Virus record (IMG/VR): IMGVR_UViG_3300031998_000008
Span: 128,001 to 192,000 of that record
From: a virus
Taxonomy: Duplodnaviria > Caudoviricetes
Reading direction: 5' to 3' (one strand)
Length of the DNA stretch: 64,000 nucleotides
The notes under the pieces are model-generated. The model was not told where the DNA came from. It made no database searches and saw only the letters and a program-made list of their open reading frames with translations. Shown here piece after piece: positions 2,918-50,950 of this stretch. The stretch's first letter is position 1, and every line of letters starts with the position of its first letter. The translations under genes and the position numbers were made by a program.

Positions 2918-3628
2918 TTAATCATTCAACCATGATGAAAATTTTCCTAATTCTTCAAAAATTTGGTTCTTTTCTGTTTCTTTGCTTTCAATATATTGCT
3001 GTGGAATTTGGTCTTCAGGTGTAATCCATGCTTGTGGGGTTGATGGGTCAGAAACAACGTCCCAACATACTATTTCGTAGTCATCGGCAACATATAGAAC
3101 ACCCATTTTATTCGTAACAGTACCAAGACCCCTTGAAGAGACACCAATTTTAATTCCTTGCAATATTAAGTTTGCAACTTGGTCCCCTTGACATGTAATC
3201 ATGCCATATTTTCTAAATCCTGGACTTGTTATTATTTCAAGTTTTCCAACCAATGTGTGGCCTTCCCAATGTAATTCAACAATATTGATTGCTACTCTTG
3301 AAAGGTCAATTACTGATTCGCTTGGGTGATTACATTCACCTATTGCACGTTTTTCGGCAATTTTTTCCATGTATTTTTGGACCTCACGTTTCAACACGTC
3401 TTCAGGATATATTCTTCCATTGGCGTTTTCTATTCCGAACTTTTGGAATACTGCTGAAACAATGAAAGGGTATGGGCAATGGAAATCATCGCTTACTTTT
3501 CCGTTGTTAATATCCTCGAAAAGTTTCTTGTTTTCTCCGATTTCAGGTGAAATATATCCATCGTGTTCAATAAGAAGACCAGTTCCCGTTTCACCACGTT
3601 TTATTTCTACTAAACTTCCTTTTGCCAT
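2918..3628 (-). CDS. Prohead maturation protease, T4 gp21-like
   Basis: Motifs ENANGRIYP, GECNHP, IGVSSRGLG, WDVVSDPS. Confidence 0.9.
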   Translation of the reverse strand: MAKGSLVEIKRGETGTGLLIEHDGYISPEIGENKKLFEDINNGKVSDDFHCPYPFIVSAVFQKFGIENANGRIYPEDVLKREVQKYMEKIAEKRAIGECNHPSESVIDLSRVAINIVELHWEGHTLVGKLEIITSPGFRKYGMITCQGDQVANLILQGIKIGVSSRGLGTVTNKMGVLYVADDYEIVCWDVVSDPSTPQAWITPEDQIPQQYIESKETEKNQIFEELGKFSSWLND

Positions 3629-3630
3629 GA

Positions 3631-4797
3631 TTATAATTCGTTTTCGTTTATAAATTCATCAGTTATTATTGATTTATCAACTTTCATCTTGCTCATTCTG
3701 TCGGTAAATCTTGTATATTCAATGTCATCTTTAGCTTTTGCGCATATTTTTGACATTATTTGTCTTCCTTTTTTTGTTCTTGCAAACACTTCTTTCATCA
3801 AAAAATTGAATTTTTCGACATCAAGTGATGCTATTCTTCTTAATAAATAAGGTAATTCATCCAAAGTTAAGTCATTAAATGATTTTGACATAAGAAGCCA
3901 TAAACTTGGTCCTAATCTCATATCCCAAGGCTCTGCTTTAAGAAAATCTGACTTTCCGATGACTATTTCAGCCATTTTTTTGTTTTTTGGTAATCCGTGT
4001 GAAATGAACAATTCCATGAATCCACGTAATGTTTCACTAAGAAGAACAGGGAATATAACACCTTGTGCTGTTATTCTTACTTGTTCACCTTCATTACCAA
4101 ATTCAACATTAACAGTGCCTAATTGCTTTTTGTTTTCATCATCAATGCCTAAATCATCTGCCATATACATTGAATAATTGTTTAGGGCCAAAATCTTCAA
4201 ATAAAGAGTGCATAACTCAGGTGAAAATTTTGAAATACTATCCGCATATGAATCAATATCAGATGATAGAACTATTGCTTCACCCATGCACAATGCATCC
4301 AATATTCTTCTTTTGTATATTTCTCCACGAATACTTGAGGCCATTTCAACATCATCGAATTGGAAATCATCATCACCGTCAATCGGGTCAACAATTATTG
4401 ATTTTGCTGATAAATCAATTGTGTCTGACAATGAAACATTCAATTCAACAGAATCTTCAGGAACGTTGAAAGTGTCTATAACATAATTAACACAAAGTTT
4501 TTCAAGTTCGTTCCTATATGGCCTTTCTATTTCTTTACATTTGTTAATTAATTTAGCCAACATTGAATTTATTTCTGTATCTTCAAAGTCATCAATTTCT
4601 CCAATATTCAATAACACATTTTTAATGTCATCAAATCTGTTGTTGGCTATTTTCAAAAGAAATGGCATATCGTATATATCAGGAATTGCAGGATTATTAC
4701 CCAATGATGTTGTATTGTTTAGTAATGCCATTTTTACATCCTCAGGTAATGAATCTGACAAAATTCCTTCGTTTATATGTTCTTTGTTATCTATCAT
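3631..4797 (-). CDS. Hypothetical head-module protein
   Basis: 388 aa ORF with upstream TATTTAT motif, adjacent to protease. Confidence 0.6.
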   Translation of the reverse strand: MIDNKEHINEGILSDSLPEDVKMALLNNTTSLGNNPAIPDIYDMPFLLKIANNRFDDIKNVLLNIGEIDDFEDTEINSMLAKLINKCKEIERPYRNELEKLCVNYVIDTFNVPEDSVELNVSLSDTIDLSAKSIIVDPIDGDDDFQFDDVEMASSIRGEIYKRRILDALCMGEAIVLSSDIDSYADSISKFSPELCTLYLKILALNNYSMYMADDLGIDDENKKQLGTVNVEFGNEGEQVRITAQGVIFPVLLSETLRGFMELFISHGLPKNKKMAEIVIGKSDFLKAEPWDMRLGPSLWLLMSKSFNDLTLDELPYLLRRIASLDVEKFNFLMKEVFARTKKGRQIMSKICAKAKDDIEYTRFTDRMSKMKVDKSIITDEFINENEL

Positions 4798-39075: not shown

Positions 39076-39146
39076 GGTTCATTGGGCCATCGGTTGGCCA
39101 GGCGTCTCTAAAACGCTAAAGAAGGGTTCGACTCCCTTATGAGCCG
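39076..39146 (+). tRNA. Amber suppressor tRNA (anticodon CTA)
   Basis: Cloverleaf GGTTCAT/ATGAGCC; anticodon arm GGCGT-CTCTAAA-ACGCT; T loop TTCGACT. Confidence 0.85.
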
Positions 39147-39176
39147 CTACCAATAAGATTAAACAAATACTATGAA

Positions 39177-40966: not shown

Positions 40967-41068
40967 TGCCCGCACGATGCGAAGGCGGCAGGTAAAACTG
41001 CTAACCCTACGGAGTACAACATGCCACGTTGAAGTGGAGGTTCTCAGGTTCGAATCCTGATACGGGCA
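40967..41068 (+). ncRNA. tRNA-like RNA (acceptor + T arm, non-canonical middle)
   Basis: TGCCCG/CGGGCA ends, TCAGG-TTCGAAT-CCTGA. Confidence 0.5.
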
Positions 41069-42816: not shown

Positions 42817-42952
42817 TGAAGCGTGGTGAAATGGTAGACACGGCGGTAGTAAACAAAACGCTTACAGTGTATGTAAGTTAACAGCAGTTGGTATTACGTT
42901 TCAGGTAGAACCGCTGCCAGTGGCGTTGGAGGTTCGAATCCTTCCGCTTCAA
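42817..42952 (+). tRNA. Type II tRNA interrupted by an ACAGCA mini-intron (~42848-42902); predicted anticodon GTA
   Basis: Removing 55 nt gives GCGGT-AGGTAGA-ACCGC; Leu-like D arm; identity uncertain. Confidence 0.6.
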
Positions 42953-42962
42953 CAAAAAAGTT

Positions 42963-43191: not shown

Positions 43192-43361
43192 GGTGCTCTG
43201 GCAGATATGGTATATGCACCGGACTGAATACAGAATAAACTGTAAATTAAACTTCGTGTTGGCGAAGAGGAAAACGCAAGACGCTAATCGTCTAACTCAT
43301 CGGTTCAAATCCGATACACGGAGCAAATCCGGCTAAGGTGGTTCGAGTCCACTGGGCACCA
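43192..43361 (+). tRNA. tRNA-Phe(GAA) with a 97-nt insertion (43229-43325) containing a nested tRNA-like RNA
   Basis: CCGGA-CTGAA[insert]AA-TCCGG; acceptor GGTGCTC/GGGCACC. Confidence 0.75.
43253..43323 (+). ncRNA. Nested tRNA-like cloverleaf with 5-nt anticodon loop
   Basis: TTCGTGT/ACACGGA, AGACG-CTAAT-CGTCT, ATCGG-TTCAAAT-CCGAT. Confidence 0.7.
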
Positions 43362-43412
43362 CAGAAAATTTGATAATAAAATAGAAATTAAAATAAAAAA
43401 ATAGGTAATACG

Positions 43413-43495: not shown

Positions 43496-43568
43496 GGGGA
43501 TGTAGCAGACACGGTTGTTGCGTGTGACTGAAAATCACAAGAAGTTGGGTCAGCACCAACCATCCCCA
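43496..43568 (+). tRNA. tRNA-Phe(GAA)
   Basis: TGTGA-CTGAAAA-TCACA; atypical T loop GTCAGCA. Confidence 0.8.
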
Positions 43569-43574
43569 CAATAG

Positions 43575-45034: not shown

Positions 45035-45162
45035 GCTGGAATCGTCTAATGGATTAGGACACGTAGCAAACAAAATGATTTCAGTCGGAAATGAAATTTA
45101 ACAGCAGAATTTAGCAATGAAATTCCAATTCCGAAATGGGGGTTCGAATCCCTCTTCCAGCT
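45035..45162 (+). tRNA. tRNA(TCC, Gly anticodon) with ACAGCA mini-intron 45064-45118
   Basis: Spliced arm CGGAA-ATTCCAA-TTCCG. Confidence 0.75.
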
Positions 45163-45164
45163 CT

Positions 45165-45290
45165 TGCAAGTTGGTGTAGTGGCAGCACACGTAGCGACTA
45201 ATTAGATTTCAGACATGGAATTAGACAGCAATATTTAAAATGCGATGAAACCATAATTCCGTGACAGAGGTTCGATTCCTCTACTTGCAA
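45165..45290 (+). tRNA. tRNA(CAT) with ACAGCA mini-intron 45192-45246
   Basis: Spliced arm ACGGAA-ACCATAA-TTCCGT. Confidence 0.75.
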
Positions 45291-45302
45291 CTATTTAAGA
45301 TT

Positions 45303-45424
45303 TGGGATGTGGTGTAACGGTAGCACACGTAGCACTTTATGATTTCAGACACGGAATTTTACAGCAATTATTTTAGCGATGAATTTGGGTTTCCGTGGTT
45401 TTGGTTCGACTCCAGACGTCCCGA
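45303..45424 (+). tRNA. tRNA-Pro(TGG) with ACAGCA mini-intron 45330-45380
   Basis: Spliced arm ACGGAA-TTTGGGT-TTCCGT; Pro-type acceptor. Confidence 0.8.
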
Positions 45425-46045: not shown

Positions 46046-46615
46046 ATGAAAAAGAATTTTAGAACAAAAGAAGAATATATTGAGGCTGCAAAGATGGCTC
46101 ATAGTGTTGCTGAAATGTGCAGATTACTTGGTAGAAATCCATGTGGCGCTGGATATTATATTATGAAAAAGAAAATCAAAGAATATGATATAGATATAAG
46201 TCATTTTCTTGGGCAAGGATGGAATAAGGGTTTAAAGATGAACCCTAATGAGGGAAAAATTAAAAAATTAGAAGAAATATTAGTAGAAAATTCCACATAT
46301 GCTAATTGTAATTGTTTAAAAAAAAGGTTATTAAAAGAAGGTGTTAAAGAATATAGGTGTGAGTGTTGTGGGTTGACTGAGTGGAACGGTAAAGAAATTC
46401 CTTTAGAAATACATCACATAAATGGTGTTAGAAATGATAACAGGATTGAAAATCTTCAATTATTATGCCCAAATTGCCATGCTCAAACAGATAATTATTG
46501 TTCTAAAAATATGAAGAATGGCGGAGTGGTGGAATTGGTAGACACGACTGTCCCAAAAGCAGTTGCCGAGAGGCGTGTGGGTCCGACTCCCACCTCCGCT
46601 ACAGAACTTAAATAA
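46046..46615 (+). CDS. HNH endonuclease (tRNA-array associated)
   Basis: CECCG..LEIHHING..DNRIENLQLLCPNCH. Confidence 0.88.
   Translation: MKKNFRTKEEYIEAAKMAHSVAEMCRLLGRNPCGAGYYIMKKKIKEYDIDISHFLGQGWNKGLKMNPNEGKIKKLEEILVENSTYANCNCLKKRLLKEGVKEYRCECCGLTEWNGKEIPLEIHHINGVRNDNRIENLQLLCPNCHAQTDNYCSKNMKNGGVVELVDTTVPKAVAERRVGPTPTSATELK
46520..46601 (+). tRNA. tRNA-Leu(CAA), overlapped by the HNH ORF 3' end
   Basis: ACTGT-CCCAAAA-GCAGT, variable arm. Confidence 0.85.
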
Positions 46616-46633: not shown

Positions 46634-47269
46634 ATGAAGAAAGTATTTATTTTATTGATGGCAATTTCTTTGATGTTTTCATTCAATTCTTGCGATTGGT
46701 TTAACAAGAACAAGGATAATGAGAAAAAAGAAATTATCGTGGAAAACGTAGTTAAAGCAGACAGAGACTACATGACAGAAAATTATGGTAATACCTACGT
46801 ATGGTATGAAACACAAATTTCTTTGAATGACTATCTTGATGAAGAATGCGATGGCTCATTCTCAGAGATTGTAGATGTGTTCCAAGTTATCACTACAACT
46901 GACAGTGTAACATTTGATACCAAAGTAATTAAGATGTACCATGTTGCTGATTCTTCATACATTGAAGAAATTGAAGGTTTCTGGGTTGAAGACATGAATA
47001 TGAACGATGAAATCATTTCAGTCACTTACAAACAAGCATTCCAACTTATTAATGAAGTAAACTTCCCAAAACCACATTCAAAGAATTGTGTTTTGAGAAA
47101 AGAAGTTGGCCCAATTGAAGCTAATCCTCAGTATATCTTTGGCAACATTGAATCACAATTGTATGTTGATGCATTGACAGGTGATGTAACTGATGAAAGC
47201 CCAAGTTTCTGTGACGAAGTTATTGAAAACGACAGCATCGAAGATGTAAACACTCAATTTGGTGAGTAG
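46634..47269 (+). CDS. Putative lipoprotein
   Basis: Signal peptide ending FNSC; C-terminal YVDALTGDV (PepSY-like). Confidence 0.6.
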   Translation: MKKVFILLMAISLMFSFNSCDWFNKNKDNEKKEIIVENVVKADRDYMTENYGNTYVWYETQISLNDYLDEECDGSFSEIVDVFQVITTTDSVTFDTKVIKMYHVADSSYIEEIEGFWVEDMNMNDEIISVTYKQAFQLINEVNFPKPHSKNCVLRKEVGPIEANPQYIFGNIESQLYVDALTGDVTDESPSFCDEVIENDSIEDVNTQFGE

Positions 47270-49240: not shown

Positions 49241-49592
49241 CGGATGTTGTTGATATTCAAAGAAAAGTCCGTAAGACGAGGGTTCGACTCCCTCCGGGTC
49301 CACCATATTGGGTGCGCCATGTTGAGTACCAACCATACTAGTTATACGGTTCTTATGATTCATGGTACAATACCAAGTAATTTGAAAAACTTGGTTCGGG
49401 TTTAAAATTGGGGTTCAACTCCCTGGCATCCAACAACTTTCAAACATGGGCCCGCTTGGATTTGATTGCGAATGAATACAATGGAAGGAGATATTCGAGA
49501 AGCCAATAAATGGCAATGAAAATTATGCATATGCAGTTGCAGCCTAAGCTAGGTTAGCAAATGCAGGTTGGCAGCGAACCAAATCGCTGCAA
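49241..49592 (+). ncRNA. ssrA: Permuted two-piece tmRNA: acceptor piece ~49241-49305, coding piece 49448-~49592, tag GNENYAYAVAA*
   Basis: GGGCCCG/CGGGTCC-ACCA with G3.U70; T arm GAGGG-TTCGACT-CCCTC; P2 pairing between the pieces; ATAAAT|GGC resume site, tag 49512-49547. Confidence 0.88.
49308..49433 (+). ncRNA. tRNA-like RNA occupying the tmRNA intervening segment
   Basis: TTGGGTGC/GCATCCAA, ACCAAGT/ACTTGGT arm, GGGG-TTCAACT-CCCT. Confidence 0.5.
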
Positions 49593-50537: not shown

Positions 50538-50664
50538 GGAGGTATAGTTTAGTGGTAGAATGACGTAAAATGAAAATAGCATTTTGGTCATTTAAAAATG
50601 TTAACAGCATATGAGTTCAATGCCTTTCCCGCCGTTGATGTAGGTTCGATTCCTGCTGCCTCCG
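50538..50664 (+). tRNA. tRNA(TTC) with ACAGCA mini-intron 50566-50621
   Basis: Spliced arm GACGGC-CTTTCCC-GCCGTT. Confidence 0.72.
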
Positions 50665-50818: not shown

Positions 50819-50950
50819 TGGCCAGTAGCTCAGTTGGCAGAGCAACGGAATGAAAAGAAAACGCATTTTGGCCTAAAGATGTTAACAGCAATGAAAAATT
50901 TTCGACTGTTAATCCGTGGGCCGCAGGTTCGAGTCCTGCCTGACCAGCCA
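50819..50950 (+). tRNA. tRNA-Asn(GTT) with ACAGCA mini-intron ~50848-50903
   Basis: Spliced arm ACGGA-CTGTTAA-TCCGT, identical to the intact Asn gene at 48219; encoded CCA. Confidence 0.85.

Follow-up and report, generated by a model that had tools for sequence, protein, structure and literature searches.

The window analysed here (64,000 nucleotides of a large gut or rumen phage, from an IMG/VR record of 148 kb with an estimated completeness of 41%, CheckV) carries an array of 14 kb in which about 35 tRNA genes are found together with a permuted tmRNA. Within this array, the region 43192-43361 (plus strand, as for all features of the locus) folds as a tRNA-Phe(GAA) gene whose anticodon loop is split by 97 nt. 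The outer tRNA has an acceptor helix GGTGCTC/GGGCACC, an anticodon stem CCGGA/TCCGG and a T arm GGTGG-TTCGAGT-CCACT. Exon 1 (43192..43227) comprises the 5' strand of the acceptor, the D arm, CCGGA and the loop nucleotides CTGA; its D arm (GCAG..TGC, with a G.A pair) is found in the same odd form in uninterrupted homologues (L293-L300). Exon 2 (43325..43361) consists of AAA, TCCGG, the variable loop, the T arm, the 3' strand of the acceptor and the discriminator A. ARAGORN, run with introns allowed, placed a 97-nt intron within 43192-43362, and removal of the insert in silico yielded a canonical tRNA-Phe(GAA), in agreement with the interrupted Phe cloverleaf given in a preliminary description of this DNA. 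The intron mode of ARAGORN named the product Cys(GCA), with the cut one base earlier on each side; this assignment was rejected, since the exons match tRNA-Phe homologues. The preliminary description had placed the insert directly after GAA. The rule derived below for the whole family moves both cuts by one base (CTGA|AT...GC|AAATCC), giving an intron at 43228..43324, but a run of A residues blurs the boundary, so that 43229-43325 is equivalent and the predicted spliced loop, CTGAAAATCCGG, is the one proposed originally. The intron is delimited by ARAGORN, by the structural rule and by the splicing test, and scores 101.9 bits with R1, a covariance model built from relatives; the match of the window gene to this model (E about 1e-21) lies far beyond chance.

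The insert is composed of four parts. A leader hairpin, TACAG-AATAAA-CTGTA (43229..43244), starts 1-2 nt past the 5' splice site; its stem had been recognized from the beginning. It is followed by an A-rich linker, AATTAAA (43245..43251), which reads AAATCAAA in relatives and is nearly invariant in the alignments A1, A3 and A4. The third part is a tRNA-like unit (43252..43323), identified by the Rfam tRNA model (41.3 bits, E 1.5e-07, on 43253-43323) and by covariation of its helix and T stem. This unit contains (i) an acceptor-type helix of 8 bp (C43252:G43323 plus TTCGTGT/ACACGGA), (ii) a D arm with GG (43262-43277), (iii) a vestigial anticodon arm (43279-43293; AGACG-CTAAT-CGTCT) with a 5-bp stem and the 5-nt loop that had been reported for the inner cloverleaf, and (iv) a T arm, ATCGG-TTCAAAT-CCGAT (43299-43315). 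The acceptor-type helix and the T stem form a 13-bp stack, after which a single unpaired C (43324..43324) directly precedes the 3' splice site.

Without the intron mode, ARAGORN detects only the inner unit of the window gene and labels it tRNA-Leu(taa). We regard this label as an artefact, because the "anticodon" lies in a 5-nt loop on a 5-bp stem. A genuine tRNA has a 7-nt anticodon loop and a 7-bp acceptor; the inner unit has a 5-nt loop and an 8-bp helix with a covarying closing pair. This pair is C:G, U:A or G:C in different members of the family, which identifies it as a real base pair. The unit does retain the features of an RNase Z substrate (a coaxial acceptor/T stack, a T loop, one unpaired nucleotide and no CCA), and features of this type were found in all 13 members parsed by script and, by eye, in four of four introns of Lak megaphages. 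The features of an RNase P substrate are likewise present, i.e., the acceptor/T stack, the D/T elbow and a single-stranded 5' leader. The cut predicted for RNase P, A43251|C43252, differs from the 5' splice site.

Homologous inserts were sought by pattern scans of viral, metagenome and genome collections and with the model R1. The early DNA patterns, CCGGACTGAA..AATCCGG and ACGRAGCAAATCCGG, were too loose and returned mostly chance matches (L115, L117, L235-L248 and L262-L265, mostly within coding sequence). The scans yielded 15 distinct homologous inserts in related large-phage contigs. The interrupted genes belong to seven tRNA identities: Phe (eight distinct genes, including that of the window), Tyr (G002 and G003), Asn (G003), Trp (L251), Arg(CCU) (G001 and the 361-kb contig L303), Thr (G003) and Lys (G003). 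The short L303 member was not recovered by R1 at E up to 1e-4 and was found by pattern and by eye. The tRNA-like unit that had been proposed to act as an intron is a real and conserved element with 15 distinct members, and the nesting is conserved in related genomes, as had been suggested for checking, with helices that covary.

In A4, a model-fitted alignment of the 15 distinct rows in which structure fitting favours pairing, 96.8% of the cells of four helices are paired and 19 of 23 base pairs show changes on both sides. This pairing was matched neither by 500 shuffles nor by any slid register, and for the three long helices the result was the same in A1, an independent MAFFT alignment. The inner 8-bp helix is paired in 99% of cells (both-side changes in 7/8 pairs), the inner T stem in 97% (4/5) and the leader hairpin in 89% (3/5). 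For the outer anticodon stem the values are 100% and 5/5, although its covariation may predate the insertion if the intron is mobile and is no proof of selection on the interrupted gene. The leader stem covaries as ACAG/CTGT, ACAAG/CTTGT, ATGG/CCAT and ACGG/CCGT, and its loop, A(G/A)(U/A)(A/G)AA, is retained among relatives.

The members share one anatomy. From 5' to 3', each intron (79-121 nt) consists of AU or UU, a hairpin of 4-6 bp, an A-rich linker (usually with AAAUCA), a tRNA-like part and a C. The acceptor-like helix stacked on the T arm measures 13 bp in every member (8+5 or 9+4), and the T loop and the D-loop GG of the inner unit are always kept. The inner anticodon arm is not conserved: it is replaced by an 8-nt linker in most members, reduced to the stub with a 5-nt loop in the window, and represented by other hairpins elsewhere. 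This pattern of a constant 13-bp stack and elbow beside a variable anticodon arm indicates that selection keeps the "top half" and elbow of the tRNA, and by the same comparison the inner anticodon arm appears dispensable. The top half and elbow are the part of a tRNA recognized by RNase P, RNase Z and the CCA-adding enzyme, and only this part is conserved. The predicted intron is a cassette composed of a leader hairpin, an A-rich linker and a tRNA top half with a degenerate or missing anticodon arm. The leader hairpin with an AAAAUCA linker was also found in contigs labelled as giant-virus MAGs, where it lies 3-4 nt ahead of free-standing genes for tRNA-Leu(UAA) and tRNA-Lys; the intron therefore resembles a cassette of leader plus tRNA in which the anticodon arm has decayed. 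These loci (L309:1720-1853, L315:70-201 and L307:5600-5722) have the hairpin loop AGUAAA, and their hairpins differ from each other by compensatory changes (TGAG/CTCG versus GAGGG/CCCTC).

A near-identical inner unit (TCTATG.., containing GGAACAGCAT) occurs in the Phe intron of L253:2056-2245(-) and in the Trp intron of L251:13530-13722, and this sharing suggests that the cassette moves between tRNA genes. Free-standing HNH endonuclease genes are located inside the arrays (window 46046-46615; L253:1504-1938 and 3391-3825), in L253 with one of them between the interrupted and the second Phe gene, and such endonucleases may drive the inheritance of introns or of arrays. Among the ORFs of the window array, the HNH endonuclease is the only one with a family match, and a search of the Atlas with a 211-aa ORF (46634-47269) gave no lead. 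An insertion of the IS200/IS605 type was considered and discarded, as there is no constant left-flank target.

A single splice rule, applied by script, describes the family: the C next to the 13-bp stack is taken as the last nucleotide of the intron, and the 5' cut is placed so that a 7-nt anticodon loop is restored. The rule yields tRNAs that ARAGORN accepts as canonical in 13 of 13 members tested (Phe 6, Tyr 2, Asn 1, Trp 1, Arg(CCU) 1, Thr 1 and Lys 1), and the nucleotide after the stack is C in all 13, as well as in the four Lak introns inspected by eye. Its register is fixed by two unambiguous cases, the Lys gene and L238:2224-2379. The latter reads CUGU|...GC|UAA and gives Asn(GTT) with the anticodon GUU; after removal of the insert in silico, its anticodon arm equals that of the Asn gene of the window, and its D arm is a close match. 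The intron sits between loop positions 35/36 or 36/37, depending on the gene (35/36 in the window), and the 5' site is always N|WU, 2 nt before the leader hairpin. The predicted splice sites are thus set by the intron's own fold and not by tRNA numbering. For the window, the product predicted by the rule joins GGACUGA to AAAUCCGG through the junction CUGAAAAUCCGG.

Intron-less alleles agree with these predictions. The spliced Trp tRNA of L251 is identical at 70 of 72 positions to the intact Trp of G001 and at 67 of 72 to that of the window, and the spliced Arg(CCU) of G001 matches the intact L253 gene at 70 of 72; the intact Trp and Arg(CCU) alleles correspond exactly to the predicted junctions. 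Uninterrupted homologues of the outer Phe gene, with the same odd D arm, are present in eight other large phage contigs and read GGACTGAAAATCCGG, which bears out the loop proposed in the preliminary description. In several phages the interrupted gene is the sole one for its anticodon (Phe and Tyr in G002; Tyr, Thr and Lys in G003; Phe and Arg(CCU) in G001), within sister-phage tRNA sets that are otherwise non-redundant. We infer from these comparisons that the introns are spliced.

Short introns of this kind have been reported from Lak megaphages, where they were called "enigmatic" and found to be highly conserved (Devoto et al., 2019, Nat Microbiol, PMC6784885). They interrupt Phe, Thr and Gly tRNA genes and a gene called "Tyr", intron-less alleles exist, and the authors remarked that the Thr intron "may encode a tRNA"; an Rfam match is lacking for three of the four A1/A2 Lak introns examined in Table S6 (PMC6784885). 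A 2026 survey of jumbo phages repeated that such introns "could encode another tRNA" (PMC13037316). The window intron resembles them in its position in the anticodon loop and in its size, being a non-group-I insert within the range of about 80-120 nt, and for Trp, Arg(CCU) and Phe, related phages carry alleles that lack the intron and define its boundaries exactly. A comparison by eye of the text of Table S6 with alignment A4 further revealed that the Lak introns share the 5' motif (UACAG or AACAG, an AGUAAA loop and an AAAUCAA linker) and an inner tRNA-like unit ending in C, and that four of four fit the architecture of a 13-bp stack with a terminal C. The intron-less Lak Thr allele shifts the intron boundary by one base, as the splice rule requires (PMC6784885). 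Under the same rule the Lak "Tyr(GTA)" gene, which has a short variable arm, would read as Asn(GTT). The phage of the window belongs to another lineage (about 33% GC, compared with 26% in Lak), with no DNA match, near or distant, to GenBank phages.

Judged by sequence and predicted fold, the window intron is of the same family as the "enigmatic" Lak introns, and the phenomenon as such was already known. The Lak papers describe no common architecture, splice rule or mechanism for the introns, and the literature that we searched held no account of any of the three. The common architecture, the splice rule and a testable enzymatic model are new in this analysis. Small Lak-type introns, which have been without explanation since 2019, appear as one structured family that extends beyond Lak phages and covers at least seven tRNA identities. 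The result also corrects annotation, as standard tRNA finders miss the outer gene, label the inner mimic tRNA-Leu or misassign the anticodon.

To our knowledge, the introns described so far in bacterial and phage tRNA genes are self-splicing group I introns. Group I tRNA introns (e.g., that of cyanobacterial tRNA-Leu UAA) share with the present ones the site in the anticodon loop and a variable presence among relatives. The present introns, unlike group I introns, are only 79-121 nt long and have no P1-P9 core: no Rfam group I model matched the intron at E up to 10, the last nucleotide of exon 1 is not U, and that of the intron is C instead of G. A group II intron was also rejected, because the insert is only 97 nt, starts with AUACAG instead of GUGYG and gave no Rfam match. 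The bulge-helix-bulge introns of archaeal and eukaryal tRNAs, among them an archaeal tRNA-Trp intron that houses a C/D guide RNA, are likewise short, located in the anticodon loop, able to hold a second structured RNA, and of a kind that looks protein-dependent. No bulge-helix-bulge could be drawn by eye at the junctions, and no sequence complementary to the loop is present upstream of the 3' site. In contrast to that class, the cut sites of the window intron are predicted to be set by its own tRNA-like fold, and bacterial hosts have, as far as we know, no tRNA splicing endonuclease. The ACAGCA motif is absent from 43228-43324, as had been observed earlier, and the intron differs in position and architecture from the "helix + ACAGCA" class of mini-introns.

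Another parallel is offered by tRNA-like processing signals, such as mitochondrial tRNA punctuation, the mascRNA of MALAT1 and plant tRNA-snoRNA precursors, in which RNase P and RNase Z are directed to defined cuts in a longer transcript by an element shaped like a tRNA; the difference is that here the element sits inside another tRNA and the flanks would need to be rejoined, a step absent from all of those systems. RNase BN/Z is needed for those phage T4 tRNAs that lack CCA, a dependence of phage tRNAs on the host enzyme. The 3' splice site of the introns coincides with the position at which RNase Z would be expected to cut, one unpaired nucleotide past the stack, with an acceptor helix of 8 bp. 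This positional match, seen in the 13 scripted members and by eye in the four Lak introns, is, at the level of predicted structure, the strongest mechanistic clue.

The permuted tmRNA of the window (49243-49547) contains a similar unit. Its intervening segment (49306-49446) contains a tRNA-like unit with an 8+5 stack followed by C, and this unit lies in a segment that has to be cut out, which fits a role of such units as processing handles. The unit begins 2 nt past the CCA end and has a helix TTGGGTGC/GCATCCAA and a T arm TGGGG-TTCAACT-CCCTG, with C as the next nucleotide. In G001, the orthologous tmRNA (L252:6163-6355) has no tRNA-like unit and a spacer of only about 25 nt.

The shape of the intron suggests that ordinary tRNA-trimming enzymes cut it out. 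In the corresponding model, the outer tRNA would fold around the cassette, and an RNase Z-type enzyme of the host would cut one nucleotide past the inner stack, so that exon 2, released with a 5' phosphate, would start exactly at position 36 or 37 of the loop. The other end, a 3' OH on exon 1, would come from a second endonuclease that cuts at N|WU, 2 nt ahead of the leader hairpin; the candidates that we name, as guesses, are an enzyme like RNase E/G and RNase P directed to the hairpin. The inner unit might in addition be released by RNase P, and the nicked anticodon loop would be sealed by an ATP-dependent RNA ligase, the type needed for 5' phosphate and 3' OH ends. Both the acting enzymes and the chemistry of the ends are what we infer for this pathway. 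The preliminary description had assigned removal to RNase P and 3' processing of the inner unit. The 3' half of that proposal accords with the RNase Z position of the splice site, but between the 5' splice site and the RNase P site downstream of it there are 24-25 nt. These two activities alone would thus leave the hairpin and linker on exon 1, and the scheme requires one more cut, 2 nt ahead of the conserved hairpin. The constant position of the 5' site relative to the hairpin points to a nuclease that takes its guidance from single strands or from the hairpin; we know of no established enzyme that cuts 2 nt before such a hairpin.

The sealing step has a precedent in Pnkp/Rnl1 of T4, where a phage RNA ligase closes an anticodon-loop nick that has a 3' OH and a 5' phosphate. 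Stand-alone RNA ligase genes (PF09414) were found inside the tRNA arrays of G002 and G003 only (L257:1327-2061 and L258:1390-2061, respectively; about 225-245 aa and 95% identical). Two differences from T4 stand out: the reaction there repairs damage, whereas a programmed nick is proposed here, and the ligase has a PF09414 (Rnl2-type) domain, not Rnl1. The window's genome G000 (41% complete) and G001 (82% complete) yielded no RNA ligase of the RtcB, Rnl1 or PF09414 type, and RtcB, T4 Rnl1 and Lactamase_B_2 (the RNase Z fold) were found in none of the four phage records. A gene for a CCA-adding enzyme is present in G001 only. In G003, a TnpB/Cas12f-like gene (L258:2110-3342) directly follows the ligase. 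Three other ideas on the leader and linker were discarded: a linker mimicking the spliced anticodon loop (true only for Phe and Tyr), its pairing with the D loop (true only for the free-standing Leu genes), and a relation of AUACAGAG to the ACAGAGA box of U6 (resemblance only).

We favour the reading that the window gene carries a conserved anticodon-loop intron of the Lak type, a tRNA-like cassette that is removed by tRNA-processing enzymes before the loop is religated, and place it at about an even chance of being correct. The wider statement, that phages of bacteria carry a class of tRNA introns that do not splice themselves but, as tRNA mimics, are removed by universal end-processing enzymes (RNase Z at the 3' end, RNase P or an RNase E-like enzyme at the 5' end) with a ligase resealing the loop, is put forward tentatively, as a plausible conjecture that more probably fails than holds. 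If true, no earlier tRNA splicing pathway that depends on proteins would be known from the bacterial world, and this one could also serve as a timing switch for the supply of phage tRNAs. With one structured family, a conserved top half and a 3' splice site that falls on the RNase Z position in every member examined, an oddity becomes a concrete, directly testable enzymatic hypothesis.

The second tRNA-Phe gene of the window could cover the function of the interrupted one, which speaks against the favoured reading and would suit a selfish or domesticated cassette that is not spliced at all. Its product would be a tRNA-like RNA released by RNase P and RNase Z, perhaps a decoy or sponge for host factors that target tRNAs, and the outer halves would be by-products or tRNA-half RNAs. 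Selection clearly acts on the fold of the inner RNA, genes for HNH endonucleases are located in the arrays and close to them, and the presence of the intron differs among sister phages, all of which fits such a cassette. It would not account for insertions that are confined to the single site and phase from which removal restores a perfect 7-nt loop, for exons that are canonical in 13 of 13 members, or for interrupted genes that are often the only copy for their anticodon in otherwise non-redundant sets, and we consider it unlikely, if worth keeping in mind. The same single-copy genes tell against the suggestion of the preliminary description that the insert is an accident buffered by the second Phe gene, as does the occurrence of one architecture in seven tRNA identities with compensatory changes, and this suggestion was abandoned. 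For a misassembly, or a one-off insertion into a decaying pseudogene, there is nothing to cite beyond the oddity itself and the mismatch-bearing D stem. That odd stem is native to the uninterrupted homologues, the 15 homologues covary, and a Bacteroidales MAG contig from another sequencing run (L266) contains the window gene letter for letter with different flanks. An identical gene in an independent assembly excludes misassembly, and the two possibilities together deserve practically no weight.

Cleavage by transesterification, either by the three-way junction itself (outer anticodon stem, leader hairpin and inner helix) or by a metal-independent nuclease, would give 2',3'-cyclic phosphate and 5' OH ends that host RtcB could join, with the tRNA-like unit as a scaffold. 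The leader loop and linker are kept in sequence across very different exons and inner units, and the same leader in phages and in giant-virus-labelled MAG contigs hints at independence from host-specific proteins; moreover, no phage ligase was seen in G000 and G001, and RtcB is present in Bacteroides (control set). Against this, no Rfam ribozyme matched even at E up to 10, and the strand at the 5' site varies with the anticodon, so few conserved nucleotides are left for a catalytic core. A hammerhead-like core at the junction was rejected, because the essential G is missing from CUGAAUA and this strand varies with the anticodon. Retention of a full tRNA elbow, the 13-bp stack and the discriminator-like C would also be unexplained, and we judge a self-cleaving or RtcB-dependent intron improbable. 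That the inner unit is a working tRNA-Leu(UAA), nested for co-expression, is suggested by the ARAGORN call, a Leu-like D arm, a long extra arm in some relatives and the leader shared with free-standing tRNA-Leu(UAA) genes; given a loop of only 5 nt in the window, the absence of an anticodon arm in most relatives and an acceptor helix of 8 bp, it is very improbable. The removal of a tRNA-like cassette by processing enzymes, followed by religation, is the reading that we retain.

In the second, uninterrupted tRNA-Phe(GAA) gene (43496..43569), the T loop is the non-canonical GTCAGCA instead of TTCRANT. The odd loop is kept in relatives (L251:14623-14696, L253:1293-1368, L256:101-174 and L238:2846-2919, with AGCGTAA in L238), and there is covariation in the T stems; the tRNA may serve a special purpose or resist nucleases. 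Suppressor-type tRNA genes were also identified, with the anticodon CTA in the window (39076-39147) and TTA in G002 (L288:1131-1202). Published surveys tie tRNA introns to recoded jumbo phages.

Well-formed T arms (5-bp stem, TTCRANT loop) were found outside all ARAGORN and Rfam tRNA calls of the window, at 41049, 42310, 42496, 42774, 48185, 48353, 48489, 48943, 50344, 51033, 51117, 51312 and 51692. With so many orphan T arms, the array is richer in tRNA-derived pieces than tRNA finders report. The same array contains inserts of the mini-intron class (51-58 nt), with a 7-bp helix followed by (T/A)ACAGCA (helix + TAACAGCA), at 50538-50664 and 50819-50947 and also at 42817-42955 and 45035-45424. 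They sit in or beside the 5' strand of the anticodon stem, and the Rfam tRNA model spans two of them as long matches. The same Asn tRNA carries an insert of the mini-intron class in the window and one of the tRNA-like class in G003.
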